From IMG/VR virus record IMGVR_UViG_2529292726_000023, positions 1 to 15,263 of that record: DNA of 15,263 bases. The stretch is one strand, 5' to 3'. Below the pieces are notes generated by a model. The model was not told where the DNA came from. It was given only the letters and a program-made list of their open reading frames with translations, and did no database searches. The position numbers and the translations under genes are program-made. The number at the start of each line of letters is the position of its first letter. Within the stretch, counting starts at the first letter, position 1. The stretch comes from a virus (lineage: Duplodnaviria; Heunggongvirae; Uroviricota; Caudoviricetes). Shown here piece by piece: positions 1,505 through 15,263 of this stretch.

Positions 1505-1533
1505 GGGAAATGAAAAGCCACCTTTGGGTGGCT
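1505..1533 (-). terminator. Intrinsic terminator downstream of the repressor gene
   Basis: Stem AGCCACC (1516-1522) / GGTGGCT (1527-1533), loop TTTG; on the minus strand followed by TTTCATTT; lies 21 nt past the repressor stop codon. Confidence 0.55.
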
Positions 1534-1553
1534 AATTGATGAGGAGGTAAGGG

Positions 1554-2246
1554 TTAATTGTGTCGCTTAAGGGTTTGTGACTGGCTGATTAAGACCTTTC
1601 CAAAGACCATAAACCGGTGTTCATTTTCGCTGGTAATTCCCCATTCACGGTAAATCTGGTTATCAGAAATCACCAGTAGTTTGTCAGGTATCATTTGCAG
1701 TCGTTTGACATAAATTTTATCATCAAAACCAAATACATAGATACCATCTCCATCAAACTGATTGATACTGACATCAACGAAGATGAGATCTCCTGGCTCA
1801 ATGGTTGGACACATACTGTCCCCACGAACGTTGATAACTTTAATGTGATTGGCTGGTCGTCCGCCAAACATCGATACAGCATTATCAGTTCTGTATTCAA
1901 TGGCATGAATCACATCAATGACATCACCGCCCTGGATAAGGCCATTTCCCGCACTGGCACTGACATCCAGCATTTCAATACGGAATACATCCTTCACCTG
2001 CGCAACATCCTCACTAATACTGTTTTTACATACAGTATTACTTTTGAAGTCTGAGGTAAAGAGATCAGCAATATCAACACCTAAGCTCCTGGCAATATTA
2101 CTCAGGGCTTGTTCAGTGAATTGTTTCTGCTTACCTGTTTCCAGGCGCGAGATATTCGCCGCATCCACTCCTATTGCTTCAGCGAGATCGGCGATTTTCA
2201 TGTTCTTCGCCTGGCGAAGTTGTCTGACTCGATTTCCTATGTTCAT
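1554..2246 (-). CDS. CI-like prophage repressor, 230 aa: N-terminal XRE-type HTH plus C-terminal S24 (LexA-like) self-cleaving peptidase domain
   Basis: MNIGNRVRQLRQAKNMKIADLAEAIGVDAANISRLETGK HTH; C-terminal GDSMCPTIEPGDLIFVD with downstream KRLQ consistent with the Ser/Lys dyad; divergent from a Cro-like gene. Confidence 0.9.
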   Translation of the reverse strand: MNIGNRVRQLRQAKNMKIADLAEAIGVDAANISRLETGKQKQFTEQALSNIARSLGVDIADLFTSDFKSNTVCKNSISEDVAQVKDVFRIEMLDVSASAGNGLIQGGDVIDVIHAIEYRTDNAVSMFGGRPANHIKVINVRGDSMCPTIEPGDLIFVDVSINQFDGDGIYVFGFDDKIYVKRLQMIPDKLLVISDNQIYREWGITSENEHRFMVFGKVLISQSQTLKRHN

Positions 2247-2343
2247 GCGTTTATTACATTTCTTTATTGCGCGTTAAGCAAATCAACTTGCGCAAAATAT
2301 TTGCGTGAAATAACATGCTCATCACGCAATATGTGGAGGTTAT
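2247..2343. promoter_or_regulatory. Immunity switch intergenic region (OR-like operators, divergent promoters for repressor and cro)
   Basis: 97-bp gap between divergent repressor and cro genes containing TTGCGCGTTAAGCAA (2267-2281), near-palindromic CGCAAAATATTTGCG (2291-2305) and CACGCAATAT (2322-2331); GGAGG RBS before cro ATG. Confidence 0.5.
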
Positions 2344-2604
2344 ATGCAATCACCATTACGAAATGTGCGTAAGGCGCACGGGCTTACTTTGCAGCATGTT
2401 GCTGCGGGCGTTCAGGTTAATCCAGCAACGCTGAGTCGTATTGAGAGACTGGAACAAATTCCATCTATCGATCTTGCAGAGCGTCTGGCCAATTTTTTTA
2501 AGGGAGAAATCAGCGAAATGCAGATTCTCTATCCTGCACGCTTTCAATCTAGTCAAAACCGGAATGAGTTAAAACCACAGGAACAGGAGGTAAGCCGTGG
2601 GTAA
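2344..2604 (+). CDS. Cro-like HTH transcriptional regulator, 86 aa
   Basis: MQSPLRNVRKAHGLTLQHVAAGVQVNPATLSRIERLEQIPSIDLAERLANFF is a helix-turn-helix fold; position divergent from the repressor; GGAGG RBS. Confidence 0.8.
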   Translation: MQSPLRNVRKAHGLTLQHVAAGVQVNPATLSRIERLEQIPSIDLAERLANFFKGEISEMQILYPARFQSSQNRNELKPQEQEVSRG

Positions 2605-3148
2605 GCATCACTGGAAAGTGGAAAAACAACCTGAGTGGTACGTGAAAGCTATCAGAAAAACTATCGCGGCATTGCCAGGTGGTTACGCTGAAGCTGCTGA
2701 CTGGCTGGATGTAACAGAGAACGCATTATTTAACCGCCTTCGTGCCGATGGCGATCAGTTTTTTCCGTTGGGATGGGCAATGGTTTTACAGCGTGCGGCT
2801 GGTACTCACCACATTGCGGATGCTGTCGCACAGTCTGCTGGTGGGGTGTTTGTATCACTTCCTGAAATTGAGGAAGTAGAGAACGCCGATATAAACCAGC
2901 GCCTGCTGGAAGTCATCGAACAGATCGGGAGTTACTCAAAGCAGATTCGTTCGGCAATCGAAGACGGGGTAGTGGAGCCACATGAGCAGACAGCAATTAA
3001 TGATGAGTTGTATCTGTCGATTTCGAAGCTCCAGGAACATGCGGCACTGGTCTACAAAATTTTCTGCGTTCCAGAAAAGAGTGACGCCCGCGAGTGTGCA
3101 GCTCCGGGCGTCGTGGCGTTTTGTGTCTGTGGAGAAACTAACGCATGA
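2597..3148 (+). CDS. Hypothetical early regulatory protein in the CII position, 183 aa; family uncertain (possibly CII/CP76-like)
   Basis: GTG start with AGGAGG RBS 6 nt upstream, overlapping the cro stop; stop overlaps the next start (ATGA). Family assignment is from position and memory only. Confidence 0.5.
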   Translation: MGKHHWKVEKQPEWYVKAIRKTIAALPGGYAEAADWLDVTENALFNRLRADGDQFFPLGWAMVLQRAAGTHHIADAVAQSAGGVFVSLPEIEEVENADINQRLLEVIEQIGSYSKQIRSAIEDGVVEPHEQTAINDELYLSISKLQEHAALVYKIFCVPEKSDARECAAPGVVAFCVCGETNA

Positions 3149-3750
3149 ACAGTTTAACGGCAAATAACCGTTGGTCGCAACAGCTGGTGGTCCGCGTGGC
3201 TGAACACCTGTTGTTACGGCATGAATGCAGATTACCAAATCACCTGGCTGTAAGTAACCACAGAGAACTTTACCTGACTGTGGGGGGCGAGTTGTGCAGG
3301 AACTTAACCGCTGGTTTCGTGACGGAAGAGGACTTTATGTTCATGTTATTCGTTGGGAGCCAGAAACACAGCGCGTTATCTATCTTCGCAAAGACTACCC
3401 GCATGAGTGCTTTAGTCCTTTGTGGAAATTCAGGCGTGATTTTGTTGAGTGTGAAGGACCACCAGCACATTGATTCTGCCATTCCGGGACGTTACACTGT
3501 TCAGGCACCTTATAAAGCGGGTGCCGGGCGTGGAAACCCGGAATTCACCAAAGCGCACAACCGCGCTCTTGCGGTTTTTTTGTGTCATGAGCAGCATTAC
3601 GCCCAAATTATGGTGGGGCGTGCAGGGCCAACTTCGGTTGGGCCGGGTTCTTTGGTGACCGGTATTTCCACCCCTGTACGTCTCACCACCAATAAGGTCG
3701 TGGAAAGCCTTGGTGGTGAGTTATTTAAAATCACCAAAGAGGCTGCCATC
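3145..3750 (+). other. Ambiguous coding region upstream of rha, in frame with it (no stop between 3145 and 4296); possible N-terminal extension, fusion or decayed gene
   Basis: ATG at 3145 is translationally coupled (ATGA) to the upstream gene, but the Rha domain has its own RBS and start at 3751. An alternative-frame ORF at 3294-3473 has a GGGGGG RBS 6 nt before its GTG. Confidence 0.35.
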
Positions 3751-4296
3751 ATGGCTACGATCCCAACCCTCACTCAACCTGAAATTGCCATCGTTGATGG
3801 TCAGGCTGTTACTTCATCCCTGGCTGTTGCCAACTTCTTCTCCAAACGTCATGACGATGTACTGAAAAAGATCCGCACGCTTGAATGCTCCGCATCATTC
3901 ACTGCCCGCAATTTTTCGGTGAGTGATTACACCGATTGCACAGGCCGCAAACTACCTTGCTATCAAATAACCCGCGACGGCTTTGCGTTTCTTGCTATGG
4001 GTTTCACGGGTAAACGTGCTGCCCAGTTCAAAGAGGCATACATCAATGCCTTTAACCAGATGGAGAAACAGCTTTCAAGGCCCGCTGTACCGAGCGACGT
4101 TGCACATAACGCCAGCGTTCTCTGTTCCTACATTTCATCAATTCATCAGGTCTGGCTGCAGCAGCTTTATCCTATGTTGGCAAAAGCCGAATCTCCGCTG
4201 GCTGTTAGCTTATATGACTATATTAATGATGCTTCGGCGCTGGCCTGCCTCATAAATTTGTCGCTGAACCCTTCAGAGGTAAGGGGGCGCAAATGA
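3751..4296 (+). CDS. Rha family phage regulatory protein, 181 aa
   Basis: MATIPTLTQPEIAIVDGQAVTSSLAVANFFSKRHDDVLKKIRTL matches the Rha domain N-terminal signature; AAAGAGG RBS 8 nt upstream of ATG 3751. May instead be the C-terminal part of a 383-aa ORF starting at 3145. Confidence 0.8.
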   Translation: MATIPTLTQPEIAIVDGQAVTSSLAVANFFSKRHDDVLKKIRTLECSASFTARNFSVSDYTDCTGRKLPCYQITRDGFAFLAMGFTGKRAAQFKEAYINAFNQMEKQLSRPAVPSDVAHNASVLCSYISSIHQVWLQQLYPMLAKAESPLAVSLYDYINDASALACLINLSLNPSEVRGRK

Positions 4297-4517
4297 TCCG
4301 GAATATTTTCAAACGTTTTACCAATCAGACTTTCCGTTGTCCTCGTCCGGGTCAGTGGTACACCACGCCTGCAGGGCATGTTCTACGTGTTAGCCTGGTT
4401 GACCGTGAATGTCAGAAGGTGGTTTGTGAACCGCTGGGCCGTAATTACCGCGTCAGTATGCCGCTTATAGCCTTTCGCTCCAGAAAAAACATGAAGCATC
4501 TCGGAGGTGCAGCATGA
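4293..4517 (+). CDS. Hypothetical small protein, 74 aa
   Basis: ATGA overlap with the upstream stop and with the downstream start (translational coupling on both sides); GGTAAGGGGG RBS. No family recognised. Confidence 0.5.
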   Translation: MIRNIFKRFTNQTFRCPRPGQWYTTPAGHVLRVSLVDRECQKVVCEPLGRNYRVSMPLIAFRSRKNMKHLGGAA

Positions 4518-5332
4518 GTATGGAGCTGATGGTTAAAGCGATGAAAATTCGAGTGGGTAATCCATTGCGAAAACTGGTTCTGATCAAGCTGGCTGATAAT
4601 GCCAGCGATCAGGGTGAGTGCTGGCCCAGCTACCAGCATATTGCTGACCAGTGCGAGATTAGCAAACGTTCTGTGATGAATCATATTGCGGCCCTTTGTG
4701 AGTCCGGGCTGGTAAAAAAAGTCACCCGGAAAGGTGAAAAAGGTAACTCAAGTAATATCTATCTCCTTCATCTGGATGGTGCAGGAGATTCACTAGGGGG
4801 TAGTGCAAATAATTCACTATCTGGTGCAGCAAATTCACCAGGTAGTGCAGGAGTTGCACCAGGGGGTAGTGCAGGAGATTCACCCAGAACCAGTCACTCT
4901 TTTGAACCAGTCAAAGAACCAGTCAATGAACCAATAGCTGTTGGTGCATCAGTTGATGAGTCCGTGCGAGTTCGTTCAAACCGACCGGAATATTCTCCGG
5001 AGTTTGAGCAGGCATGGCTGGCATATCCCAAACGTGCTGGTGGCAATTCAAAATCTGCAGCCTTCAAAGCCTGGAAAGCCCGTTTGAATGAGGGGGTAAA
5101 CCCCGAAACCATGCTGGAAGGTGTGAAACGCTATGCGGGCTGGGTATCTGCAATGGGTAACAGCGGCACACAATTTGTGAAACAGGCTGTCACGTTCTTT
5201 GGTCCGGATCGTCATTTCGAAGAATCCTGGGAAGTTCCTGCGGTATCTGCAGCCAGACGTGAGGACCCGTACTTCAAATCCAGTTACGACAACGTGGACT
5301 ACAGCCAGATCCCGGCAGGATTCAGGGGGTGA
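4514..5332 (+). CDS. O-like replication initiator candidate, 272 aa: N-terminal winged-HTH DNA-binding domain, Gly/Ser/Ala-rich linker, conserved C-terminal domain
   Basis: N-terminus LRKLVLIKLADNASDQGECWPSYQHIADQCEISKRSVMNHIAALCESGLVKK resembles phage replication-protein HTH domains; the linker coincides with iteron-like DNA repeats, as in lambda O/ori. Confidence 0.6.
   Translation: MSMELMVKAMKIRVGNPLRKLVLIKLADNASDQGECWPSYQHIADQCEISKRSVMNHIAALCESGLVKKVTRKGEKGNSSNIYLLHLDGAGDSLGGSANNSLSGAANSPGSAGVAPGGSAGDSPRTSHSFEPVKEPVNEPIAVGASVDESVRVRSNRPEYSPEFEQAWLAYPKRAGGNSKSAAFKAWKARLNEGVNPETMLEGVKRYAGWVSAMGNSGTQFVKQAVTFFGPDRHFEESWEVPAVSAARREDPYFKSSYDNVDYSQIPAGFRG
4778..4935. repeat. Iteron-like direct repeats inside the replication gene (candidate origin of replication)
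   Basis: Repeated units GGTAGTGCA (x3), GTGCAGGAGATTCAC (x2), ATTCAC (x4), then AACCAGTCA (x3) within about 160 bp. Confidence 0.5.
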
Positions 5333-5334
5333 TC

Positions 5335-5823
5335 ATGAGTCTTTTGAATGACGTTCAGAAATTCATTGAAGCCCATCCGGGGTGTACTTCCGGAGACATT
5401 GCGGATGCTTTTGCAGGTTACTCACGGCAGCGCGTACTGCAGTCAGCAAGCAAGTTACGTCAGAGTGGGCGTGTGGCTCACCGTTGTGAAGGGGATACAC
5501 GCAGACATTTCCCGCGCCTGACTGAGAGAGCGCAGGAGCCGGAACCACAACCAGTTCGTGAAACCAGACCTGTGCGCAATTTCTATGTCGGCACTAACGA
5601 TCCCCGGGGGATTTTGTGCCTGACCCGCCAGGCTGAAGAACTGGAGTCAAGAGGCTTATACCGTCGTGCTGCAACCGTGTGGATGGCGGCATTCCGTGAA
5701 AGCCACTCCCAGCCAGAACGAAACAATTTTCTGGCGCGTCGTGAGCGGTGCTTACGGAAAAGCAGCAAGCGCGCTGCATCGGGTGAAGAGTGGTATCTGT
5801 CAGGGAATTACGTGGGGGCTTAA
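5335..5823 (+). CDS. PerC-like transcriptional regulator domain protein, about 162 aa
   Basis: C-terminal QAEELESRGLYRRAATVWMAAF...LARRERCL resembles the PerC/Pch motif; ATG 5335 has an AGGGGG RBS. The GTG at 5329 in the ORF track is less likely. Confidence 0.5.
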   Translation: MSLLNDVQKFIEAHPGCTSGDIADAFAGYSRQRVLQSASKLRQSGRVAHRCEGDTRRHFPRLTERAQEPEPQPVRETRPVRNFYVGTNDPRGILCLTRQAEELESRGLYRRAATVWMAAFRESHSQPERNNFLARRERCLRKSSKRAASGEEWYLSGNYVGA

Positions 5824-6476
5824 TGAGTAATAAATATTGCCAGGCGCTGGTGGAACTGCGGAACAAACCAGCCCATGAACTGAAGGACGTGGGCGATCAG
5901 TGGCGCACGCCGGACAACATTTTCTGGGGAATTAACACCCTGTTTGGCCCGTTTGTTCTGGATCTGTTCACTGACGGTGATAACGCCAAATGTGCTGCGT
6001 ATTACACGGCGGAAGACAACGCGCTGGCGCATGACTGGTCAGAACGTCTTGCGGAGCTTAAAGGTGCTGCCTTTGGTAATCCCCCATACAGCCGCGCCAG
6101 TCAGCATGAGGGGCAATACATCACCGGCATGCGTTACATCATGAAGCATGCCAGTGCCATGCGTGATAAGGGCGGGCGCTATGTTTTCCTGATCAAAGCT
6201 GCCACCAGCGAAGTTTGGTGGCCGGAAGATGCAGACCATATTGCTTTTATTCGCGGGCGTATTGGTTTTGAACTGCCTGCCTGGTTTATCCCGAAGGATG
6301 AGAAGCAGGTGCCGACAGGAGCGTTCTTCGCTGGTGCTATTGCTGTTTTCGACAAGACCTGGAAGGGACCGGCAATCAGCTACATCGGGCGCGATGAACT
6401 TGAGGCATGTGGTGAGGCCTTTCTGGCGCAGGTTCGCCAGCAGGCGGAAAAACTGGTCAGGGAGATGGCGGCATGA
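5823..6476 (+). CDS. Phage-type DNA N6-adenine methyltransferase, 217 aa
   Basis: MSNKYCQALVELRNKPAHELKDVGDQWRTPDNIFWGI... with WRTP and NPPY (FGNPPYSRA) motifs typical of the phage Dam family; start overlaps the upstream stop (TAATG). Confidence 0.85.
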   Translation: MSNKYCQALVELRNKPAHELKDVGDQWRTPDNIFWGINTLFGPFVLDLFTDGDNAKCAAYYTAEDNALAHDWSERLAELKGAAFGNPPYSRASQHEGQYITGMRYIMKHASAMRDKGGRYVFLIKAATSEVWWPEDADHIAFIRGRIGFELPAWFIPKDEKQVPTGAFFAGAIAVFDKTWKGPAISYIGRDELEACGEAFLAQVRQQAEKLVREMAA

Positions 6477-6799
6477 CGACGTTAACTCAATGCCAGCAGC
6501 AGGGGCTGGATATGCTGATTTCTTACCAGAAAGAACGTGGCTTCCCGCCAACCAATCAGGAGGTGGCAACCATGCTGGGATACCGTTCAGTGAATGCAGC
6601 GGTGGAGCATCTTCGCGCACTGGAGAAAAAAGGCGTCATCACGATAAAGCGTGGCGTGGCCCGGGGGATCACGCTTCATACCGCAGTGAAGGACGACGAC
6701 AGCGAAGCGGTCGGGATTATCCGCTCACTGCTTGCCGGTGAGGAAAACGCAAGGCTGCGTGCAACCCACTGGTTACATGAGAGGGGCCTGAAAGCATGA
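6473..6799 (+). CDS. LexA N-terminal DNA-binding-domain-like protein, 108 aa, with no peptidase domain
   Basis: LTQCQQQGLDMLISYQKERGFPPTNQEVATMLGYRSVNAAVEHLRALEKKGVITIKRGVARGITL parallels the LexA winged-helix domain; protein ends about 40 aa later without an S24 domain. Confidence 0.75.
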   Translation: MTTLTQCQQQGLDMLISYQKERGFPPTNQEVATMLGYRSVNAAVEHLRALEKKGVITIKRGVARGITLHTAVKDDDSEAVGIIRSLLAGEENARLRATHWLHERGLKA

Positions 6800-7185
6800 A
6801 GCTGATCCTGCCTTTTCCGCCCAGCGTGAACACGTACTGGCGACACCCCAACAAAGGGGCGTTTGCAGGTAAGAGCCTGATAAGCGCGGCGGGGCGCAAA
6901 TTCCAGAGCGCGGCGTGCGCAGCAATAGTTGAGCAGTTACGTCGTCTACCAAAACCAACGTCGGCACCTGCTTCAGTGGAGATCGTGTTGTTTCCTCCGG
7001 ATAACCGGATCCGCGATCTGGACAACTATAACAAGGCGCTGTTTGACGCGTTGACCCACGCGGGTGTGTGGGAAGACGACAGACAGGTGAAAAGAATGCT
7101 GGTGGAGTGGGGACCGGTTATCCCGAAAGGGAAGGTCGAGATCACCATCAGTAAGTACGAGAAAACGGCGGGTGCAGCCGCCTGA
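6796..7185 (+). CDS. rusA: RusA Holliday-junction resolvase, 129 aa
   Basis: MKLILPFPPSVNTYWRH...RDLDNYNKALFDALTHAGVWEDDRQV matches RusA conserved motifs; typical nin-region position. Confidence 0.9.
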   Translation: MKLILPFPPSVNTYWRHPNKGAFAGKSLISAAGRKFQSAACAAIVEQLRRLPKPTSAPASVEIVLFPPDNRIRDLDNYNKALFDALTHAGVWEDDRQVKRMLVEWGPVIPKGKVEITISKYEKTAGAAA

Positions 7186-7204
7186 TCAAGAGGAGAAACG
7201 AAGT

Positions 7205-8002
7205 ATGAATAATCTGATGGTCATTGATGGTATTGAAGTTCGTCGTGATGCTTATGGTCGTTACAGCCTGAACGATCTGCACAGGGCTGCCGGTTCTCTG
7301 GATAAGCATAAGCCTGCATTCTGGCTCCGCAATGAGCAAACTGAACGTTTAATAAGCGAGTTGCAGATTTGCAACTCGGTCAATATAGAGCCAGTTAACG
7401 TTATTCGTGGCGGAAATAACCAGGGGACGTATGTCTGCAAAGAACTGGTGTATGCCTATGCAATGTGGATAAGCCCGTCATTCCATCTGAAGGTGATCCG
7501 TACTTTCGACATGGTAACCAGCGCACCGGAAAAATTATCCGGACAGGCTGCTGACAAGATGCAGGCTGGTGTGATTCTGCTGGACTTTATGCGCCGGGAA
7601 TTAAACCTGTCTAACTCTTCAGTGCTTGGGGCCTGTCAGAAACTCCAGGAGGCTGTTGGCTTACCGAATCTGGCACCGCGCTATGCCATTGATGCTCCTG
7701 CTGACGCGCCTGATGGCTCAAGCCGCCCCACGCTGTCACTGAGTGCACTGCTGAAGCAGTATGGTATCCGCCTGACAGCTAATCAGGCATATCACCAGAT
7801 GGCGAAGCTGGGGATCGTTGAACAACGTGAACGATACAGCCGCACTGCGATTAACAACATCAAAAAATTCTGGTCGCTGACGGCGAAAGGCTGCATGTTC
7901 GGCAAGAACATCACCAGTCCCGCAAATCCGCGCGAGACGCAGCCGCATTTCTTCGAATCCCGGTTCCCTGAGCTGTTAAAGCTGCTCGATACCGTTCATT
8001 GA
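7205..8002 (+). CDS. KilA-N domain protein, 265 aa
   Basis: N-terminus MNNLMVIDGIEVRRDAYGRYSLNDLHRAAG...KPAFWLRNEQTERLISEL...GGNNQGTYVCKELVYAYAMWISPSFHLKVIRTFD is a KilA-N fold; GAGGAGAAA RBS before ATG 7205. Confidence 0.8.
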   Translation: MNNLMVIDGIEVRRDAYGRYSLNDLHRAAGSLDKHKPAFWLRNEQTERLISELQICNSVNIEPVNVIRGGNNQGTYVCKELVYAYAMWISPSFHLKVIRTFDMVTSAPEKLSGQAADKMQAGVILLDFMRRELNLSNSSVLGACQKLQEAVGLPNLAPRYAIDAPADAPDGSSRPTLSLSALLKQYGIRLTANQAYHQMAKLGIVEQRERYSRTAINNIKKFWSLTAKGCMFGKNITSPANPRETQPHFFESRFPELLKLLDTVH

Positions 8003-8003
8003 G

Positions 8004-8999
8004 GTGACCGTGAGAGCGCTACTGACCCCTGAAATTGCCCCGCGTATGGGGATCGTATTGTTCAGGCCAGGTTCAGAGCTGATGCCCCTGTTTATGCAGG
8101 GGCGTGTCCTGCTGGAGCCTGAGCCGGAACGTTATTCATCTTTCGCCAGTGGTGCCGTTCCGGCTGCATCACAACCGCTGGCGGATGATCCTGCCGTTTG
8201 GGCCGTGTTCCGCAATGAGGCAGTGATTCGTCGTGCTGGTGGAGTGGAATGTCTTGAACGCTGGTTACTTCGTGAAAAAGGTTGCCAGTGGCCTCATTCC
8301 GACTGGCACAGCGAGAACATGACCACAATGCGACACACGCCGGGCGCAATCCGTCTGTGCTGGCACTGCGATAACCAGCTGCGCGATCAGTTCACGGAAC
8401 GGCTGGAATCAATGGCAACGGATAACTGTACCCGCTGGGTGTTGTCTGTTGTGCGTCGGGATCTCGGTTTTGATGACAGTCACGTTGTGACAATGCCGGA
8501 ACTGTGCTGGTGGCTGATTCGTAATGACCTGGCGGATGCCTTACCGGAAAGTGCAGCCCGTAAGGCACTGAGATTACCGAAGCCTGTTGTGCCGTCTGTC
8601 ACCCGGGAAAGTGACCTTGTGCCTTCGGTTCCTGCCACCAGCATCATCCAGGATAAAGCGAAAAAGGTGCTGGCGCTGAAAGTGGATCCGGAGTCGCCGG
8701 AGTCTTTTATGTTACGCCCAAAACGTCGCCGCTGGGTTAATGAAAAGTACACGCGCTGGGTTAAGACACAGCCGTGTGCATGTTGTGGAAAGCCTGCTGA
8801 TGATCCCCACCACCTGATAGGTCACGGTCAGGGAGGAATGGGAACAAAAGCGCATGACCTTTTTGTGTTGCCTTTGTGCAGAAAGCATCACGACGAGCTG
8901 CATGCGGATACCGTGGCATTTGAAGAGAAGTATGGCTCCCAGCTGGAGCTGATATTTCGTTTTATCGATCGTGCGCTGGCAATTGGCGTGCTGGCCTGA
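8004..8999 (+). CDS. DUF968 protein (YdfU-like), about 330 aa, with C-terminal HNH-like Cys/His motif
   Basis: C-terminal [43 protein letters not shown]; sits just upstream of Q as DUF968 genes do in Qin-like prophages. True start may be GTG 8010 (GAGG RBS). Confidence 0.75.
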
Positions 9000-9016
9000 T
9001 TTTGTGGAGAAAGTTG

Positions 9017-9382
9017 ATGCGTGATATTCAAATGGTTCTTGAACGTTGGGGGGCATGGGTGGCAAATAATCACGAGGATGTCACCTGGTCGTCTATTGCT
9101 GCAGGATTTAAAGGACTAATCCCTTCAAAAGTAAAATCCCGCCCGCAATGTTGTGACGATGACGCGATGATCATTTGTGGGTGCATGGCTCGCCTGAAAA
9201 AGAACAACAGCGATTTGCACGATTTATTAGTGGATTATTATGTAGGTGGTATGACGTTTATGGCGCTTGCCCGTAAACATGGGCGTTCTGATTGCTGGGT
9301 TGGGCGTTTATTGCAAAAGGCTGAAGGTGTAGTTGATGGCATGTTAATGATGTTAGAAATTGAGCTAGAGATGGATCGTTAG
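9017..9382 (+). CDS. Late-gene antiterminator Q (QuuD-like family), 121 aa
   Basis: [76 protein letters not shown] matches the Q antiterminator family of DLP12/phage-82 type as I remember it; GGAG RBS. Confidence 0.85.
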
Positions 9383-9423
9383 AAGACCTCTTATTGAGGG
9401 GGTAATTGAATCAGTTTAATGTG

Positions 9424-9458
9424 TGGGGAGTCGATTTATTCTCCCCATTTATTTAATT
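9424..9458 (+). terminator. Hairpin plus A/T-rich tract downstream of Q
   Basis: Stem GGGGAG (9424-9429) / CTCCCC (9440-9445), 10-nt loop, followed by ATTTATTTAATTAATTT; a possible promoter (TTGAGG 9393-9398, 17 nt, TAATGT 9416-9421) lies just upstream. Confidence 0.35.
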
Positions 9459-9465
9459 AATTTAC

Positions 9466-9912
9466 TTAAGGTTTTAATTCATCAAGACGTTGTTGGATAG
9501 TGTTTTTGCTTGCGTTGTCTGTTATAGCCATTTGTTGTACTTGCCCCATTGCCATTTGAGTTTCCATCCACATATCGGCCCACACTTTTGTATCGTTATT
9601 AACTTGAGCGATAGTAAATCTGACTTTTGATACCGGGGTTGTTGAATAGGCATTTCCGATTAACATTTGTCCAAAAACAGCAGAGCCGCCTTCCAGTTCT
9701 TTACCACATATAACACTGCTGTTATCCGCGTTGTAAATTATCAACCCTCTACTATTGCAGTAATTCACAAGGGCATCTTTGACTTTATCTTTTGTCGTAT
9801 TTTGATAAACCCCCTCAGGTTTTCCTGATTGAGTTTTCTTTATCAATGGTACGGAAGAAGTACAACCTGAAATGATAGTTGCGCTAAGTAATAGTACAGT
9901 CATTTTATTCAT
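9466..9912 (-). CDS. Lipoprotein of unknown function, 148 aa, AT-rich moron between Q and the tRNA array
   Basis: N-terminus MNKMTVLLLSATIISGCTSS is a signal peptide with lipobox (ISGC); opposite strand to flanking late genes; local GC visibly lower than the neighbours. Confidence 0.7.
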   Translation of the reverse strand: MNKMTVLLLSATIISGCTSSVPLIKKTQSGKPEGVYQNTTKDKVKDALVNYCNSRGLIIYNADNSSVICGKELEGGSAVFGQMLIGNAYSTTPVSKVRFTIAQVNNDTKVWADMWMETQMAMGQVQQMAITDNASKNTIQQRLDELKP

Positions 9913-10041
9913 GTTTCTTATCCATTGTTAAGGGTATACCCACACAATTATTTTTATTGGAGATGAATAATCAACCGTTTACAATCGTAAAAAATCAAAT
10001 ATGCTGTTAAGAGTGGTTACTTCGCCACACAACTTAACCCC

Positions 10042-10061
10042 GCCGCTGAGCGGTTTTTTTT
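10042..10061 (+). terminator. Intrinsic terminator (short GC stem plus T8)
   Basis: GCCGC-TGA-GCGG hairpin at 10042-10053 followed by TTTTTTTT at 10054-10061. Confidence 0.55.
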
Positions 10062-10142
10062 GTACCTGTAAACTTGGTGCAGTACAGTAAACACGCTGGT
10101 GGACAAGTGAAAAACAGCATTTAATCAGGCCTTCTGAAGATA

Positions 10143-10171
10143 TTGCAGTATTAATTCTGTAACGTTATTAT
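10143..10171 (+). promoter_or_regulatory. Candidate sigma70 promoter for the tRNA array
   Basis: -35 TTGCAG (10143-10148), 17-nt spacer, -10 TATTAT (10166-10171), about 9 nt before the first tRNA. Confidence 0.45.
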
Positions 10172-10180
10172 TCTGTGCGC

Positions 10181-10256
10181 GGCCCTTTAGCTCAGTGGTG
10201 AGAGCGAGCGACTCATAATCGCCAGGTCGCTGGTTCAAATCCAGCAAGGGCCACCA
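10181..10256 (+). tRNA. tRNA with CAU anticodon, most like tRNA-Ile2 (lysidine type; a plain scan would call it Met)
   Basis: 76-nt cloverleaf GGCCCTTTAGCTCAGTGGTGAGAGCG...CTCATAA...GGTTCAAATCCAGCAAGGGCCACCA; anticodon CAT at 10214-10216; encoded CCA; resembles enterobacterial ileX/ileZ. Confidence 0.85.
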
Positions 10257-10257
10257 A

Positions 10258-10334
10258 CTGCCACTAGCTCATCAGGAAAGAGCGTCAACCCTTTAAGTTG
10301 AGAGTGCGAGGTTCGAGTCCCCGGTGGCGGTCCA
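10258..10334 (+). tRNA. tRNA-like gene with noncanonical anticodon loop CCTTTAA (position 33 is C); anticodon reads UUU (Lys) by standard numbering; identity uncertain, possibly a pseudo-tRNA
   Basis: Acceptor CTGCCAC/GTGGCGG (one G-U pair), D-stem GCTC/GAGC, anticodon stem TCAAC/GTTGA, T-loop TTCGAGT with one A-C mismatch in the T-stem, encoded CCA. Confidence 0.5.
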
Positions 10335-10336
10335 GT

Positions 10337-10412
<76 letters not shown>

Positions 10413-10415
10413 TGT

Positions 10416-10490
<75 letters not shown>

Positions 10491-10496
10491 GTTAGA

Positions 10497-10542
10497 GTCT
10501 TTCAGTCTGCGATGATGGGAAATCCCGGAGTGACTGAAAGAC
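10497..10542. repeat. Perfect 11-bp inverted repeat GTCTTTCAGTC / GACTGAAAGAC with 24-nt spacer
   Basis: Direct reading; immediately downstream of the tRNA array. Confidence 0.7.
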
Positions 10543-10550
10543 GTTTAAGT

Positions 10551-10620
10551 TATGAATGATCGCTTTTTTTGCAAAATTGCTGTGCAGAAATACTAACCTT
10601 CGGGCAGGCGATCATTCATA
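10551..10620. repeat. Perfect 13-bp inverted repeat TATGAATGATCGC / GCGATCATTCATA with 44-nt spacer
   Basis: Direct reading; spacer contains a T7 run and a possible promoter (TTGCAA ... TACTAA). Confidence 0.7.
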
Positions 10621-10696
10621 AGCACTCTGCTTTTATTCCGATTAACTGTGGGTGGTTTGTTGGATAGAGTGCTTCCCTTACTGTATATATCGTTTC

Positions 10697-10720
10697 GCCC
10701 GCTTTTGCGGGTTTTTCTTT
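10697..10720 (+). terminator. Strong intrinsic terminator just upstream of the lysis cassette (candidate tR'-type terminator read through by Q-modified polymerase)
   Basis: GCCCGC-TTTT-GCGGG hairpin (10697-10711) followed by TTTTTCTTTT. Confidence 0.65.
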
Positions 10721-10781
10721 TCAAATCCCTTTCATTTCTCAGTGTAAAACTACGCCATCCGTTATTTGCGGAGGTGAGGCT

Positions 10782-10997
10782 ATGAAATCCATGGACAAAA
10801 TTTCAACGGGCATTGCCTACGGCACCTCCGCAGGCAGTGCTGGCTACTGGTTTTTACAGTGGCTTGATCAGGTCAGTCCGTCACAGTGGGCTGCGATTGG
10901 TGTACTGGGGAGTCTGGTTCTGGGCTTCCTGACTTATCTGACAAATCTGTACTTCAAAATAAGAGAAGATAAGCGTAAGGCTGCACGGGGAGAGTAA
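10782..10997 (+). CDS. Phage-21-type class II holin (pinholin) with dual-start motif: 71-aa antiholin from ATG 10782 and 68-aa holin from ATG 10791
   Basis: [71 protein letters not shown] is near-identical in pattern to phage 21 S21 / DLP12 EssD as I remember them; GGAGGTGAGG RBS. Confidence 0.9.
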
Positions 10998-11001
10998 TTC
11001 A

Positions 11002-11346
11002 ATGACACAAAAATATGAACTGATTGTGAAAGGGATCCGCAATTTTGAGAATAAAGTTACGGTAACTTTAGCGTTACGGGACAAAAAACGCTTTGACGGT
11101 GAAATTTTAGACCTGGACATCTCGCTGGACCGTGTTGAAGGTGCCGCGCTGGAGTTTTATGAGGCAGCAGCCAGAAGGAGCATCAGACAGGTCTTCCTGG
11201 ATGTTGCTGCCGGGTTATGTGAAGGGGATGAGCAGTCACCGGAAAAGCGCCCCATAATTTTAGAGGCGCAGGGTGTGTGGATAACCTACAAAGGAAAACT
11301 GCCGGGAAGAATTACTGGTTCACTGAAGACTCCGCCGAAATGGTAA
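11002..11346 (+). CDS. Hypothetical protein, 114 aa, between holin and endolysin (same position as Qin YdfR); function unknown
   Basis: ATG 11002 with GGGGAGAG RBS, 4 nt after the holin stop; product MTQKYELIVKGIRNFENKVTVTLALRDKKRFDGEILDLD...; 3' end overlaps the convergent gene by 35 bp. Confidence 0.6.
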   Translation: MTQKYELIVKGIRNFENKVTVTLALRDKKRFDGEILDLDISLDRVEGAALEFYEAAARRSIRQVFLDVAAGLCEGDEQSPEKRPIILEAQGVWITYKGKLPGRITGSLKTPPKW

Positions 11347-11584
11347 TTTCACCAGCATATTTTTCTTCCAGTAATACCGCCAGCCACTTGAAAGAATTTT
11401 GTTGTTGCTGGGACCATTTGGGGTTGAGTGATTCAAGCTGGAGCGATGCCAGTGTTGGTTGCATTTGTTCCTTGGGAATTGAGAATGCCAGATATGAAAA
11501 TGCGACAGTAAGGGCATTTACATCATCCCGAAGCTTGGAAATGCAGTCGAGCAACTCCTGTAGAGAAATGGTGCTATTGTCCAT
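11312..11584 (-). CDS. Hypothetical small protein, 90 aa, antisense to the lysis operon; one hydrophobic segment; function unknown
   Basis: ATG at 11584 on the minus strand with GAGAGGA RBS 6 nt upstream; product MDNSTISLQELLDCISKLRDDVNALTVAFSYLAFSIPKEQ...; candidate promoter TTGAAT (11624-11629) / TACAAT (11599-11604). Confidence 0.55.
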   Translation of the reverse strand: MDNSTISLQELLDCISKLRDDVNALTVAFSYLAFSIPKEQMQPTLASLQLESLNPKWSQQQQNSFKWLAVLLEEKYAGEITISAESSVNQ

Positions 11585-11689
11585 AAACAATCCTCTCTAT
11601 TGTATTTAACTATTCCTTGCCTGATTCAACAGGCCGGGACAGATAAACATATCCAGGGTTCAGAAACCGATAAATCCTGATAAATATCC

Positions 11690-12223
11690 ATGAGCGCAAA
11701 AATCAAATACGGCCTGTCAGCTGCTGTTCTGGCGCTGATTGCTGCAGGCGCGTCTGCTCCTCAAATACTTGACCAGTTTCTGGATGAAAAAGAGGGTAAC
11801 CACACTACGGCATACCGCGATGGTTCCGGTATATGGACCATCTGTCGTGGTGCCACAATGGTGGATGGTAAGCCCGTCATACCGGGAATGAAGCTGTCGA
11901 AGGAAAAATGCGACCAGGTTAACGCTATTGAACGTGATAAGGCGCTGGCATGGGTGGAGCGCAATATTAAAGTACCACTGACCGAACCACAGAAAGCGGG
12001 TATAGCGTCATTTTGTCCCTATAACATTGGCCCCGGTAAGTGTTTCCCGTCGACGTTTTATAAGCGGCTGAATGCCGGTGATCGTAAGAGTGCATACGAG
12101 GCGATTCGCTGGTGGATAAAAGATGGTGGGCGCGATTGCCGCATACGTTCAAATAACTGCTATGGACAGGTTATTCGTCGTGACCAGGAAAGCGCATTAG
12201 CCTGTTGGGGGATAGATCAGTGA
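11690..12223 (+). CDS. SAR endolysin (T4-lysozyme-like muramidase with N-terminal signal-anchor-release domain), 177 aa
   Basis: N-terminal [18 protein letters not shown] hydrophobic SAR segment, then E...D...T lysozyme motif region ([23 protein letters not shown]); follows a pinholin as in phage 21. Confidence 0.9.
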
Positions 12224-12687
12224 GCAGAGTCGCCGCGATTATTTATGCTCTGGTTATCTGCATCATCGTCTGCCTGTCGTGGGCGGTCAATCATTGCCGT
12301 GATAACGCCATCGCCTACAAAGAACAGCGTGATAAAAAAGTCAGTGAGCTGAAGCAGGCGACCGCCACCATTACTGACATGCAGCAACGCCAGCGTGCTG
12401 CTGATGTACTCGATGCTAAATACACGAAGGAGTTGGCTGATGCGAAAGCTGAAAATGATGCTCTTCGGCGCAAGCTTGATAATGGTGGTCGGGTGCTCGT
12501 CAAAGGAAAATGCTCTGTGCCATCCTCAGCCGAAACCTCCAGCGCCTCCGGCATGGGCAATGATGCCACCGTCGAACTCTCTCCAGTTGCTGGACGAAAC
12601 GTTCTCGGTATCCGGGACGGAATCATCAGAGACCAGACAGCACTGAGAACGCTTCAGGAATATATCAGGACGCAATGCCTTCGATGA
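12220..12687 (+). CDS. Rz inner-membrane spanin, about 155 aa
   Basis: GTG 12220 overlaps the endolysin stop (GTGA); N-terminal [22 protein letters not shown] then charged coiled-coil region; contains Rz1 in the +1 frame. Confidence 0.85.
12440..12646 (+). CDS. Rz1 outer-membrane lipoprotein spanin, 68 aa, embedded in Rz
   Basis: [39 protein letters not shown]: signal peptide, lipobox VVGC, proline-rich; AAGGAG RBS 7 nt upstream. Confidence 0.85.
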
Positions 12688-12861
12688 TAGCGATAATTTT
12701 ACTCATCATCCTTCACATCTGGCTCTGTAGACAGGGTGGTGATCACTTCTGGAGTGAATCCAGATTAAACATCTCATTGCTGATGCTTGAAGTTGAGCAT
12801 CTGGCGCGCGGTAAGGGGCTGCGTTGAAATAAGAGCCAGTCATTACAAATACCAGGATTTA

Positions 12862-12887
12862 GCCTCGTATTCGCGGGGCTTTTTATT
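12862..12887 (+). terminator. Intrinsic terminator candidate downstream of the lysis genes
   Basis: GCCTCG-TATTCG-CGGGGC hairpin (one G-U pair) followed by TTTTTATT. Confidence 0.5.
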
Positions 12888-12944
12888 GCCATTACAAAAG
12901 CCACTCCCTACAGAGTGGCTTTGATAATGGCTTATACCCTACAC

Positions 12945-12970
12945 GGGATAACTTAACTGATATCCCTTTT
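12945..12970 (+). terminator. Second hairpin plus T-run
   Basis: GGGATA-N10-TATCCC followed by TTTT. Confidence 0.4.
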
Positions 12971-13312
12971 AACGGATAAAGGTATTCAAGCCTGACACAT
13001 CATGCGCTGTATCGTCGCCGTATTCCCGTATTAACAGAGACCGTAGCCCGACGGGGAACTCCTTCTGCGAGAGTGTGCGGGAATAATCAAAAACGATGCA
13101 CACCGGGTTTTTACCGCGTTTATGGTTCGCGGGTTTGTCCCTCATGCTCGCCAGTCCTGTGCGGGGGTGGAAGAAACAGGATACTCACACAGATTCTTGT
13201 GGGCACGATGCTATTCCTTTCTGGATTATCCCGATGCCATTCATGCAAGGCGCTGTATCAGACGTTCGTCATGGCTGTCAGGCTGACGGGTCCTCCCGGT
13301 GGGGTGGCCTGC

Positions 13313-13333
13313 CACGGGGCGGGAGCGTCGCGG
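13313..13333. other. Candidate cohesive-end site (cosN-like) upstream of the terminase genes
   Basis: ACGGGGCGGGAGCGTCGCGG resembles the lambda cos region ACGGGGCGGCGACCTCGCGGG as I recall it, followed by an AT-rich stretch before the small terminase gene. Confidence 0.45.
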
Positions 13334-13501
13334 AAAAAGGCTAGTTTTTGCATTTTTATCGGCCACCATCATCTTTGCATCTTATTGATTATTAATGTTA
13401 TTTGTTTTTTGTATGTCGAATTGAGTGTTTTTTGTTCGACATCGAACGCGTTTTCTTAAAGTTGTTCGCACGATGCATGTTTAAAGCTCTCCGGAGGAAA
13501 T

Positions 13502-13993
13502 ATGGATCATGAGTTGAAAAACCTGGTGCTGAATATTAATCAACTGGCGGCTTTATCTGGTCTGCACCGCCAGACTGTCGTGGCAAGACTGAAAAACATT
13601 CGTCCCGCTGGTGGACATGACAAACTCAAGCTATACCGGTTGACCGATATTCTGACTGAATTTATGGGGTTACCACCGCCGGTTGCTGAGGGCGAAATGG
13701 ATCCACATGAACGCAAAGCCTGGTATCAGTCTGAACGTGAGCGTCTTAAGTTCGAACAGGAAACGGCACAACTCATTCCGGCCAGTGATGTCAGACGGGA
13801 GTTTGCCATCTGGGCAAAAGCGGTCGTGCAGGTGCTGGAGACATTACCGGATATTCTGGAACGTGACTGCGGCCTGCAGCCTGTCGCTGTGAGCCGTGTT
13901 CAGTCCATTATTGATGATCTGCGCGATCAGATAGCCCTGCGGGTGACCGAAGCAGGTGCGGATGATGAGGAGGAATTACAGCAGGAGGAGTAA
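13502..13993 (+). CDS. Terminase small subunit (Nu1-like), 163 aa
   Basis: N-terminal HTH-like LNINQLAALSGLHRQTVVARLKNI, acidic C-terminus; directly precedes the large terminase with TAATG overlap; GGAGG RBS. Confidence 0.8.
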   Translation: MDHELKNLVLNINQLAALSGLHRQTVVARLKNIRPAGGHDKLKLYRLTDILTEFMGLPPPVAEGEMDPHERKAWYQSERERLKFEQETAQLIPASDVRREFAIWAKAVVQVLETLPDILERDCGLQPVAVSRVQSIIDDLRDQIALRVTEAGADDEEELQQEE

Positions 13994-14859
13994 TGCTGAA
14001 TCAGGAAACCGCAAAGGCAGCACGAACCGATTCAGGTTATATCCTTCGCGCACCGAGACGAATGCGGGTTGCTGATGCCGTTGCTCAGTATATGCGAGTG
14101 CCCATGGGGGCCGGGAACTCAGTCCCGTGGGATCCGCTGGTGGCACCGTATGTTCTTGAGCCGATGAACTGCCTGGCCTCGCGTGAATACGACGCAGTGA
14201 TATTTGTTGGTCCGGCACGAACCGGCAAGACTATCGGCCTGATTGACGGCTGGGTGATTTACAACGTGATTTGCGATCCTGCGGATATGCTGATCATTCA
14301 GATGACGGAGGAAAAAGCCCGCGAACACTCCAAAAAACGACTTGCCAGAACGTTTCGCGTCAGCCCGGAAGTGGTCAGTCGCCTGAGTCCGAACAAAAAT
14401 GACAACAACGTTTATGACAGAACATTCCTTGCTGGCAACTACCTGAAAATCGGCTGGCCGTCAGTCAATATCATGTCCTCATCAGATTATAAATGCGTGG
14501 CGCTGACGGATTATGACCGTTTTCCGGAAGATATTGATGGCGAGGGGGATGCCTTCTCTCTTGCCTCAAAACGTACCACCACATTTATGTCCAGTGGTAT
14601 GACGCTGGTGGAGAGTTCCCCCGGCAGGGATGTGAAGGATGTGAAATGGCGACGGACTTCACCGCATGAGGCTCCACCAACCACGGGGATACTGTCGCTC
14701 TATAACCGTGGCGATCGCCGTCGCTGGTACTGGCCCTGTCCACACTGTGGTGAGTATTTTCAGCCCTGCGGCGATGTGGTTGCTGGTTTCCGTGATATTG
14801 CCGATCCCGTGCTGGCAAGTGAGGCGGCTTATATTCAGTGTCCTTCCTGTTCATATTAG
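13993..14859 (+). pseudogene. Terminase large subunit (lambda gpA-like), truncated after about 288 codons at the IS21-family insertion
   Basis: Walker A-like FVGPARTGKT; ...DYDRFPEDIDGEGDAFSLASKRTT...YWPCPHCGEYFQ parallels lambda gpA; frame stops at 14857-14859, where the IS terminus begins. Full-length gpA is about 640 aa. Confidence 0.8.
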
Positions 14860-15263
14860 ACGTCAACTAGTTTTGCCGACTCGCGCCAACTATACTGGCC
14901 GCACCCTTCAGTGCGACATCAAGTCGCGCTTGTTACTGCCTTCGCTGTCTTTTTCCTGTAGCTTTCACCTTTCAGTTCGAACATATATCCGTGATGGATC
15001 AGCCGGTCTGCCGCCGCCACCGCCATAGTCTCATCCACGAAGATGCTGCCCCACATGCTGAACGGATGGTTACTGGTTATCACCAGGCTCCCACGTTCAT
15101 AGCGATGCGCTATTAACTCGAACAGTACTCCCGTTTCGGCGCTGTCGCGTTTGACATAGCCAAGATCATCCACCACTATCACCCGGTAGCGATCCAGTTT
15201 CAGTAGCAGCTCATTCAGTTTCAACTGCGCTCTGGCTTTACGTAGTTCCTGCAACAACTCTCC
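14848..15263 (-). mobile_element. IS21-family insertion sequence, partial copy (IstB side), continuing beyond the window end
   Basis: Terminus TGTTCATATTAGACGTCAACTAG at 14848 shares the TTAGACG.CAAC motif with the other IS end; IstB C-terminus encoded at 14919-15263. Confidence 0.75.
14919..15263 (-). CDS. istB: IS21-family IstB helper ATPase, C-terminal about 114 aa only (gene starts beyond the window)
   Basis: ...YRVIVVDDLGYVKRDSAETGVLFELIAHRYERGSLVITSNHPFSMWGSIFVDETMAVAAADRLIHHGYMFELKGESYRKK has the Walker B (VVDDLGY) and C-terminal features of IstB/DnaC-like ATPases. Confidence 0.85.
   Translation of the reverse strand, partial: GELLQELRKARAQLKLNELLLKLDRYRVIVVDDLGYVKRDSAETGVLFELIAHRYERGSLVITSNHPFSMWGSIFVDETMAVAAADRLIHHGYMFELKGESYRKKTAKAVTSAT

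Follow-up and report, generated by a model that had tools for sequence, protein, structure and literature searches.

A minus-strand gene between ydfR and the endolysin gene of a lambdoid Escherichia coli prophage is probably the cargo of an antisense moron cassette

The DNA analysed here is IMG/VR record IMGVR_UViG_2529292726_000023, positions 1 to 15,263 (the window, meaning the whole stretch of 15,263 nucleotides), which carries the late-lysis segment of a lambdoid E. coli prophage. The chromosome of E. coli 510016 is 100% identical to positions 11300-11700 and possesses the same gene order from the repressor to the lysis genes. Between the genes for a YdfR-family protein and a signal-arrest-release (SAR) endolysin, both on the late strand, the window harbours a small gene of 90 codons on the minus strand. 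We interpret this gene as the probable cargo of an antisense 'moron' cassette, in which an accessory unit has been placed in reverse orientation between two genes of the late operon. The genes and features of the segment are the following.

5′ of the tRNA cluster: gene of the antiterminator Q family, first in the gene order of the segment
10181-10490: four tRNA genes, between Q and the holin gene
10694-10712: terminator-like hairpin (motif scan)
10782-10997, plus strand: phage-21-type class II holin (pinholin S), 71 aa (PF04971, E 1.4e-35; RefSeq 'class II holin family protein')
11002-11346, plus strand: YdfR-family (DUF1327) protein, 114 aa (PF07041, E 4e-42; full-length phrog_406)
11240-11270, minus strand: terminator-like hairpin, about 40 nt past the antisense stop codon (minimum free energy and centroid folds)
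11312-11346, both strands: convergent 3′ overlap of 35 bp (read from the sequence)
11312-11584, minus strand: antisense gene, the putative cargo, 90 aa, PHROG 2411 (phrog_2411 positions 1-90 of 90, E 4e-59)
11585-11635, minus strand: cargo-specific part of the leader (29 variants differ at 15 of 51 sites)
11636-11689, minus strand: conserved part of the leader, common to all cassette types (4 of 54 sites vary among 29 variants)
11690-12223, plus strand: SAR endolysin R, a lysozyme, 177 aa (PF00959, E 2e-23)
12205-12687, plus strand: Rz spanin (PF03245, E 9e-29)
12395-12646, plus strand: Rz1, embedded in Rz (PF06085, E 8e-21)

The geometry given in the original prediction, with a 114-aa plus-strand open reading frame (ORF), a 90-aa minus-strand ORF, a 35-bp overlap and a 105-bp gap, is exact by coordinates. 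The minus-strand ATG is separated by these 105 bp (11585-11689) from the endolysin ATG at 11690. The phage-21 holin, the SAR-type lysozyme and Rz/Rz1 found as flanks are in agreement with the lysis setting that had been proposed. The N-terminus of the endolysin contains a hydrophobic, SAR-like stretch (Kyte-Doolittle 1.78). Directly 5′ of its start codon, positions 11670-11692 read GATAAATCCTGATAAATATCC, with no purine-rich Shine-Dalgarno sequence. This stretch is nearly invariant, and doubles as the outer part of the antisense leader.

The minus-strand ORF encodes 90 aa from its ATG, or 92 aa from a TTG further upstream at 11590. A good Shine-Dalgarno sequence, GAGAGGA (11591-11597), is located 7 nt 5′ of the ATG, as expected from the strong ribosome-binding site claimed earlier. 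The ORF is open in sixty-two out of sixty-four related loci, which share 87-100% nucleotide identity. A plus-strand shadow ORF (11277-11609, 110 aa, GTG start) spans the whole antisense gene. Stop codons interrupt this plus-strand ORF in 8 out of 29 distinct variants and the minus-strand ORF in 2 out of 29, and the plus-strand ORF is not a gene. The variable sites of the minus-strand ORF are distributed as 12, 9 and 29 over the first, second and third codon positions, a bias which alone cannot pick the strand because the 11277-11609 ORF shares the third-codon positions. Over the 79 non-overlapping codons of the antisense gene, the pairwise ratio of nonsynonymous to synonymous substitution rates (dN/dS) was 0.15-0.6, and the most divergent pair showed a nonsynonymous proportion (pN) of 0.087 and a synonymous proportion (pS) of 0.394 (Fisher p 6e-7). 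RefSeq annotates the gene as 'hypothetical protein' in every copy inspected, and the module was present with at least 80% query coverage in 1053 of 5426 complete E. coli genomes (about 19%). Taken together, these data show that the minus-strand ORF codes for a protein and that purifying selection acts on it.

The distance between YdfR and R is 55-63 bp in locus L003 and phage mEp460, whereas it is 343 bp in the window. Because YdfR and R adjoin in L003 and mEp460, the window carries an insertion between otherwise adjacent genes, which is one mark of a moron. Among the eighty-one loci measured, the module was present in sixty-four and the slot was empty in seventeen, and the module geometry was constant (346 nt) in all 60 full copies measured. 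Other phages possess different genes in the same slot, including an 86-aa gene of PHROG 2572 in PhiR5_1 and 2H10, gp06 (104 aa) of the Shiga toxin 2 (Stx2) phage 86 (Stx2-86), and a 79-aa gene in phage Perceval. The genes of 2H10 (L102 1320-1580, minus strand, 86 aa) and Perceval (L104 1132-1371, minus strand, 79 aa) are unannotated. All slot cargos are encoded on the minus strand. No homology was detected between them, and comparison of the 90-aa family with three other cargos gave profile-to-sequence probabilities below 1%. The label 'DUF1823' of the PhiR5_1 cargo was not reproduced by Pfam. The same YdfR core is thus paired with four unrelated cargos. The interval between ydfR and the endolysin gene is a hypervariable slot, either empty or occupied by one of at least five unrelated small antisense genes.

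Comparison with an empty cassette placed the bounds of the insert at about 11335-11632. Therefore, the antisense gene ends in seven codons that are simply the conserved YdfR codons ...TGSLKTP... read on the opposite strand, a sequence that is also retained in the cargo-free phage H-19B. In H-19B, the YdfR-family gene is followed by a leader remnant fused directly to the conserved YdfR tail sequence, so the locus is an emptied cassette slot (L226 1169-1576, with gene and remnant). The YdfR-family gene of the H-19B record (plus strand, 115 aa) was left unannotated. The synonymous divergence (dS) between copies reached 0.55 in the antisense gene versus 0.01-0.16 in the adjacent ydfR. Since the antisense gene is far more diverged between copies, the two genes have different histories, and the contrast is consistent with cassette exchange.

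The original prediction recognised neither protein, and both can now be assigned to families. The 114-aa protein, which had been described as lying in a YdfR-like position, belongs itself to DUF1327/YdfR, with 142.7 bits against PF07041 (gathering cut-off 25; profile positions 1-92 of 93), and the identical protein is named 'YdfR family protein' in RefSeq. The YdfR family was found in Escherichia and Shigella only. Its core, residues 1 to about 85, is conserved, and the C-termini vary with what follows the gene, i.e., the cassette. On its left, the variable slot is bordered by the conserved last codons of the 114-aa gene (...ITGSLKTPPKW). In mEp460, Perceval and the 104-aa proteins P0246/P0247 the C-terminus is ...SITGC instead. 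The AlphaFold2 model of the 114-aa protein had low confidence (predicted local distance difference test, pLDDT, 45), with three strands, a helix and a disordered tail. Similar to YdfR of the Qin prophage of E. coli K-12, the protein matches the family over its full length, and its gene occupies the same holin-to-endolysin position as in Qin-type cassettes. Functional data came to light for K-12 YdfR alone: two-hybrid and co-purification assays recently reported show that it interacts with the catalytic, N-terminal half of RNase E, the interaction surface was mapped to its residues 1-72, and it may co-purify with RNA (PMC13232886). The binding of RNase E is known for the K-12 protein only, which is itself absent from our family alignment. 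The 114-aa protein is likely an ordinary product of a co-oriented late gene, the 3′ end of which merely provides the left flank for cassette recombination.

On the other side of the slot, the antisense gene is preceded by a conserved leader, which begins directly next to the endolysin ATG, on the opposite strand. Read in cargo direction, it consists of UAUCAGGAU, about 15 variable nt, the invariant CCUGG(A/U)UAUGUU, and then a GC-rich hairpin; the order before the cargo ATG is conserved block, hairpin 1, hairpin 2 and Shine-Dalgarno sequence. In the window, the minus strand of 11636-11689 reads UAUCAGGAU ... CCCUGGAUAUGUU, and aligns with the invariant leader columns. The CCTGG(A/T)TATGTT columns are invariant in 39 leaders with different cargos.

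A scan of the collection with GGWTATGWT-N11-CCGYCAGYGG returned at least 120 matches, four of which were chance matches to GC-rich sequence. Among the matches listed, the ORFs 3′ of genuine leaders belong to twelve unrelated families of 52-118 aa, including a free-standing DUF1883 (PF08980) and the 90-aa family. The opposite-strand neighbour in these matches was the SAR endolysin (46), a tail protein (L in 21, M in 6), or a membrane protein resembling a holin (8). The presence of the leader before at least twelve unrelated small-protein families therefore indicates that it moves with the cargo. In agreement with this, members of the 90-aa family in Citrobacter and Atlantibacter carry the leader despite having different neighbours, so the leader travels with the antisense gene. 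Two tandem leader and cargo cassettes, with cargos of 190 aa and 86 aa, were found between tail genes I and J in one locus (L123 9321-10377), which suggests that cassettes can accumulate as arrays. All cargo families tested correspond to PHROGs of unknown function, and their search against PADLOC gave no match to a known defence model. DUF1883 has been reported as a frequent partner of bacterial TIR domains (PMC9153377).

The alignment of the 39 leaders revealed hairpin 1 as CCGYCAGYGG-loop-CCRCUGRCGG. The stems of hairpin 2 (AGAGG/CCUCU, GAGGCC/GGCCUC, GCGAG/CUCGC and GGGG/CCCC) surround a conserved GGCUGA loop. Among 47 distinct leaders, standard pairs occupy 90.8% of the pair positions, versus 31-45% with slid partners. 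Changes on both sides occurred in nine pairs (equalled in 2 of 500 shuffles), and the covariation score was 0.237 versus 0.142 (equalled in 0 of 500 shuffles), figures to be read as support and not proof, because these 47 related sequences were fitted to a covariance model. The unfitted leader alignment gave the same covariation picture. The search of Rfam with the window and five other loci found no family over the leader. The tail-type leader is rare in E. coli genomes (71 genomes) and never annotated as RNA. The window keeps the 5′ block and not hairpins 1 and 2, and is therefore a divergent member of the cassette family (model R1). In place of the two consensus hairpins it has a more variable stretch and one small hairpin, GCCUG-uugaau-CAGGC (11619-11634), which is present in the minimum free energy and centroid folds.

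In consensus leaders, such as those of L108 and L130, the conserved loop of hairpin 2, ATGGCTGA, opens a mini-ORF of six codons, ATGGCTGATTACCTCTGA (MADYL*), which in some loci abuts the cargo start or runs into the cargo in frame. A leader peptide ATGGCTGATTACCTCTGA was rejected as unlikely and probably coincidental, with the Shine-Dalgarno-like GAGG just 1 nt from the AUG. A LexA site was considered in the tail-context leaders, and rejected as well; the sequence TACTG-N9-CAGGA is one base short of the LexA spacing.

The distribution of the leader bears on the proposal, already included in the original prediction, that the antisense gene regulates lysis timing. As an element of lysis control, the antisense transcript or protein would tune the expression of ydfR, S or R by transcriptional interference, by pairing with the late mRNA into double-stranded RNA, or through contact with a lysis protein, and so set the timing of lysis or silence leaky lysis-gene expression in the lysogen. 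The gene is suitably located for this between pinholin and endolysin, it overlaps ydfR convergently, and its leader abuts an endolysin start that has no obvious Shine-Dalgarno sequence, with the 54 endolysin-proximal bp nearly invariant. In addition, RNA decay could take part in lysis control, given the reported contact of K-12 YdfR with the catalytic half of RNase E and its reported co-purification with RNA (PMC13232886). Nevertheless, the same units of leader and cargo are also present at tail junctions and 5′ of holins, so they are not bound to lysis genes, and nothing links the 90-aa gene to lysis. Many functional phages possess an empty slot. A single dedicated partner in lysis is hard to square with the unrelated cargos of the lysis slot, and the 90-aa protein does not belong to the membrane proteins. 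We consider lysis control unlikely.

An independently transcribed unit would require signals of its own. Promoters were scored with a position weight matrix built from sigma-70 frequencies, with 200-nt windows as background. The candidate TTGAAT (11624-11629)-N19-TACAAT (11599-11604), probably the one meant in the original prediction, reached 10.5, with a poor spacer of 19 nt, and its transcript would start inside the Shine-Dalgarno sequence because just 14 nt remain before the ATG. A second candidate, TTTATC (11669-11674)-17-TATGTT (11646-11651), is positionally conserved, its -10 element being the invariant block of all leaders. The leader was also read for extended -10, sigma-38, sigma-32, sigma-24 and sigma-54 motifs, with no convincing match. 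Downstream of the antisense gene, the hairpin at 11270-11240 (GCGCCUC-9 nt-GGGGCGC-UUUUCC) lies within the ydfR codons PEKRPIILEAQ, and just misses the criteria of the terminator scan (loop of 9 nt, four U). Clear terminators, with hairpin and T-run, were found after the sister cargos C2, C4, C5, C6 and C8, in their own orientation and in the same place, such as GCCCCGG-cuagu-CCGGGGC-UUUU after cargo C4. The order promoter, gene, terminator is the classical moron layout. The slot polymorphism, the travelling leader and the terminators of the sister cargos fit a putative independently transcribed unit antisense to late transcription.

The tail-context cassettes (e.g. L130, L108 and L121) also possess a canonical intrinsic terminator in late sense, AGCCACCUCCGGGUGGCUUUUUUU, directly 5′ of the start codon (ATG) of the following tail gene; at its place to the left of the leader it reads AGCCACCTCCGGGTGGCTTTTTTT. 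This terminator would stop polymerase that is not Q-modified, and Q-modified polymerase is expected to ignore it.

The 90-aa protein matches PHROG 2411, a family without known function, over its full length (positions 1-90 of 90). It is acidic, with an isoelectric point of 4.4. Its best 19-residue Kyte-Doolittle window is 0.88, far below the 1.7-1.8 of the holin and the SAR segment of the endolysin, therefore the protein is not membrane-spanning, and the hydrophobic segment that had been noted earlier is the mere core of a helix. Similarly, no transmembrane segment or signal sequence was detected when it was examined as a possible membrane protein (holin, antiholin or lysis regulator). AlphaFold2 predicted a soluble protein of three helices (residues 8-34, 38-52 and 59-76; pLDDT 77). 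Searches by sequence gave no match in Pfam, NCBIfam, PADLOC or PDB, and comparison of the model with PDB and the viral BFVD folds gave generic helical matches only, all with E > 0.1. The homology and structure searches thus delivered family matches for both proteins, and no informative fold match for the 90-aa protein. The literature searched for YdfR, DUF1327, ybl58, antisense morons and phi24B gene names contained nothing on the antisense gene.

With a plain sequence search, relatives of the 90-aa protein were found only in Escherichia, Shigella and E. albertii, with at least 67% identity. Two successive profile searches, the first of them over 1.8 billion representatives, extended the family to Citrobacter (63%) and Atlantibacter (40%), and many proteins with 30-40% identity in Serratia, Chimaeribacter, Sodalis, Chania, Gibbsiella and Acerihabitans. 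The relatives have in common the core motif ELL..I..LR..VN.L..AFSYLAFS...E.M.PT[LI]ASL.[FY]ES.N. In Serratia and Chimaeribacter the family member (X) is chromosomal, in the fixed neighbourhood pyrC-dinI-X-bssS-solA, and in Sodalis and an uncultured relative it is a lone chromosomal gene. The chromosomal members lack the conserved leader. In a Citrobacter prophage the family member is antisense to the late operon, directly 5′ of the holin gene, and in an Atlantibacter prophage it is antisense between tail genes M and L. Both prophage members converge on a small late-strand gene with a 3′ overlap of 7-14 bp, and the C-termini encoded on the late strand are alike (...RITGSLKTPPKW in YdfR of the window, ...KITGSLRAPIKL in Citrobacter, and ...QIFGDLKKPPSY in Atlantibacter).

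These overlaps are relevant to the possibility that the antisense protein and the overlapped co-oriented protein form a two-gene module, acting as toxin and antidote, or as regulator and target. A toxin/antitoxin-like pair with the 114-aa protein had been suggested in the original prediction. In three unrelated contexts a family member does converge on a small late-strand gene with 7-35 bp of overlap, the overlapped genes have similar C-termini, and in the tail-context cassettes a late-sense terminator follows the pair. However, either gene is found without the other. Many phages possess YdfR and no antisense gene, the members of the 90-aa family in Serratia, Chimaeribacter and Sodalis are unpaired chromosomal genes, and the family occurs without YdfR in the Citrobacter and Atlantibacter prophages. 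The minus-strand ORF is conserved, but the pair, the conservation of which the original prediction had proposed to check, is not obligate. Furthermore, one YdfR core goes with four unrelated cargos, searches of Pfam, NCBIfam and PADLOC returned no toxin, antitoxin or defence model for either protein, and the genes are convergent and not co-transcribed. The common C-terminal motif is equally explained as a conserved recombination flank of the cassette. A dedicated two-gene module is therefore very improbable.

The Serratia homologue is located directly after dinI and its terminator, and a LexA-box-like sequence, TACTGAATACTTTAACAG, is present just 5′ of its Shine-Dalgarno sequence (L089 4973-4988). 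In Chimaeribacter (L100), CTG-N10-CAG lies at 89 nt upstream, in another position than in Serratia; this box is not present in Sodalis or the window. The evidence is too weak to call SOS/LexA control of the family, which we treat as unproven. In the uncultured relative (L097 3176-4321, chromosomal), a DUF1883 protein (95 aa), a 57-aa ORF and a PHROG 2411-family member of 106 aa are encoded on one strand, and model R1 gives a marginal match of 17.8 bits just 5′ of the DUF1883 gene. The DUF1883 and 90-aa families, neighbours in L097, both occur as phage cassette cargos.

Several observations weigh against a moron cassette as the explanation of the antisense gene. The candidate promoter that had been proposed for the 105-bp gap was not borne out by a consensus scan, which detected no sigma-70 site there. 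With a score of 8.0, the conserved candidate TTTATC-17-TATGTT stays under the 90th percentile of the background (9.0), and outside the endolysin context, as at tail genes, its -35 element lacks conservation. The 3′ hairpin of the window is merely terminator-like, and sits in constrained coding sequence. The leader of the window lacks both consensus hairpins, with hairpin 1 deleted and hairpin 2 unpaired in the covariance-model alignment. The base composition of the antisense gene is barely different from its flanks (GC 0.44 versus 0.47-0.53). The fold, defence and family libraries gave no functional hint for the 90-aa protein, and expression data for its gene were not found in the literature searches. 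Nonsense mutations in two out of the sixty-four loci indicate that some copies are decaying, and several protein clusters are frameshifted 94-aa variants of the antisense protein. In these variants (P0045, P0049, P0051 and P0058), the first 58 or so residues are kept, and then the frame switches. The frameshift recurs near the CAACAACAACAAAA run, and so points to decay or variation in some lineages.

The frameshifted clusters, the nonsense mutations, the two hairpins lost from the window leader, and a family that is narrow in E. coli (at least 67% identity) could also be explained by a hitch-hiking or decaying gene, functionless today in E. coli prophages and kept by strongly conserved recombination flanks. 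Nonetheless, sixty-two of the sixty-four copies are intact, about 19% of the complete E. coli genomes possess the gene, lineages that differ by a dS of up to 0.55 still show a dN/dS well below 1, and the core motif is kept in distant relatives with 30-40% identity. Loss of function is thus a quite unlikely explanation, and an antisense moron cassette remains the preferred one.

Outside the lysis genes, other features were found in the window. The first gene of the four-tRNA cluster (10181-10256) was identified by ARAGORN as tRNA-Met with anticodon CAT, whereas RefSeq annotates it as tRNA-Ile; it is probably a lysidine-modified Ile2 tRNA, and its companions in the cluster are Lys, Thr and Gly. 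A minus-strand ORF of 148 aa (9466-9912) lies between the Q antiterminator gene and the tRNA cluster, and is annotated as 'hypothetical protein' by RefSeq in an identical prophage (L005 10167-10613). Strong Rfam matches to the Hfq-binding RNA isrK (3505-3581, plus strand, 67 bits) and to the C4 antisense RNA (3606-3693, plus strand, 84 bits) fall within an ORF annotated as Rha-family regulator, an arrangement like c4-ant of P1/P7 immI.

In the proposed cassette, the leader would supply a weak sigma-70-type promoter, for which TTTATC-17-TATGTT is the best candidate, with a start near 11639, and would also give a structured 5′ untranslated region. The unit would be transcribed independently of Q, and therefore presumably be on in the lysogen or right after infection. 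After induction, convergent Q-antiterminated late transcription would oppose the antisense unit. The conserved flanks, i.e., the YdfR tail and the leader, may permit swapping of cargos by recombination. The predicted product is a small, acidic, three-helix cytoplasmic protein, which would most likely bind a protein of the host or of a competing phage, and act as a lysogen-benefit, exclusion or anti-defence factor and not as lysis machinery. The diverse cargos, the cassettes in tail operons and the functional phages with an empty slot argue against a dedicated role in lysis or a partnership with YdfR. Considering its size, charge, helical fold and exchangeability, and the TIR-associated DUF1883 among the sister cargos, we infer as the most plausible guess that the 90-aa protein is a protein-binding modulator of a host or rival-phage function.

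Morons are extra transcription units between late genes, such as bor and lom of lambda and gp15 of HK97, and the concept is reportedly due to Juhala, Hendrix and colleagues. Similar to the lambdoid morons, the insert of the window is a small accessory gene between genes that are adjacent in relatives, in the late operon with its lysis and tail junctions, and its sister cassettes possess a promoter-like upstream region and their own terminator. Classic morons are described as one-off insertions, each with its own signals. In contrast, the window cassette is antisense, overlaps the 3′ end of the neighbouring late gene, and belongs to a set of at least twelve cargos with one structured leader and conserved flanks. 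In other temperate phages, conserved flanks also enclose variable accessory loci, such as the anti-CRISPR loci of Mu-like Pseudomonas phages and the defence hotspots of P2/P4. Like them, the cassette occupies a fixed slot in or beside structural or late genes, where conserved sequence, both flanking and regulatory, surrounds one of many unrelated small cargo proteins. However, it has no associated helix-turn-helix regulator (aca-like gene), its cargo is antisense to the operon, and no cassette cargo matches a PADLOC model or is known to act in defence or anti-defence, the sole hint of defence being the DUF1883 cargo. With type I/II toxin-antitoxin pairs, the locus shares two small adjacent genes whose transcripts would overlap, but not co-occurrence, a membrane toxin, co-transcription or a family match.

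What is added here is the shared structured leader and a cassette family of multiple cargos and multiple sites, for which no description was found in the searchable literature or Rfam. A broader reading, possible but doubtful, is that the leader is an undescribed portable element for regulation and recombination, which plugs at least twelve unrelated antisense small proteins into late junctions. The cargos, including the 90-aa family and the free-standing DUF1883 otherwise fused to TIR immune proteins, might then form an exchangeable arsenal for anti-defence, defence or exclusion, and the leader might be a new cis-regulatory RNA, absent from Rfam, that times their expression.

The interval between holin and endolysin of phage-21-type cassettes, including those of Stx phages, often hides real unannotated minus-strand genes, as in 2H10 and Perceval, which is a warning for annotation. 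The shared leader is a sequence handle for finding every cargo, and one reporter could time the whole class. A joint screen of the cargos could cover their effects on superinfection, on defence systems and on the fitness of the lysogen. Much of the "dark matter" in E. coli genomes, i.e., uncharacterised sequence, resides in temperate phages. At least twelve conserved small proteins of unknown function are encoded in this slot and its sister slots, and the 90-aa family alone is present in about one fifth of the complete E. coli genomes.

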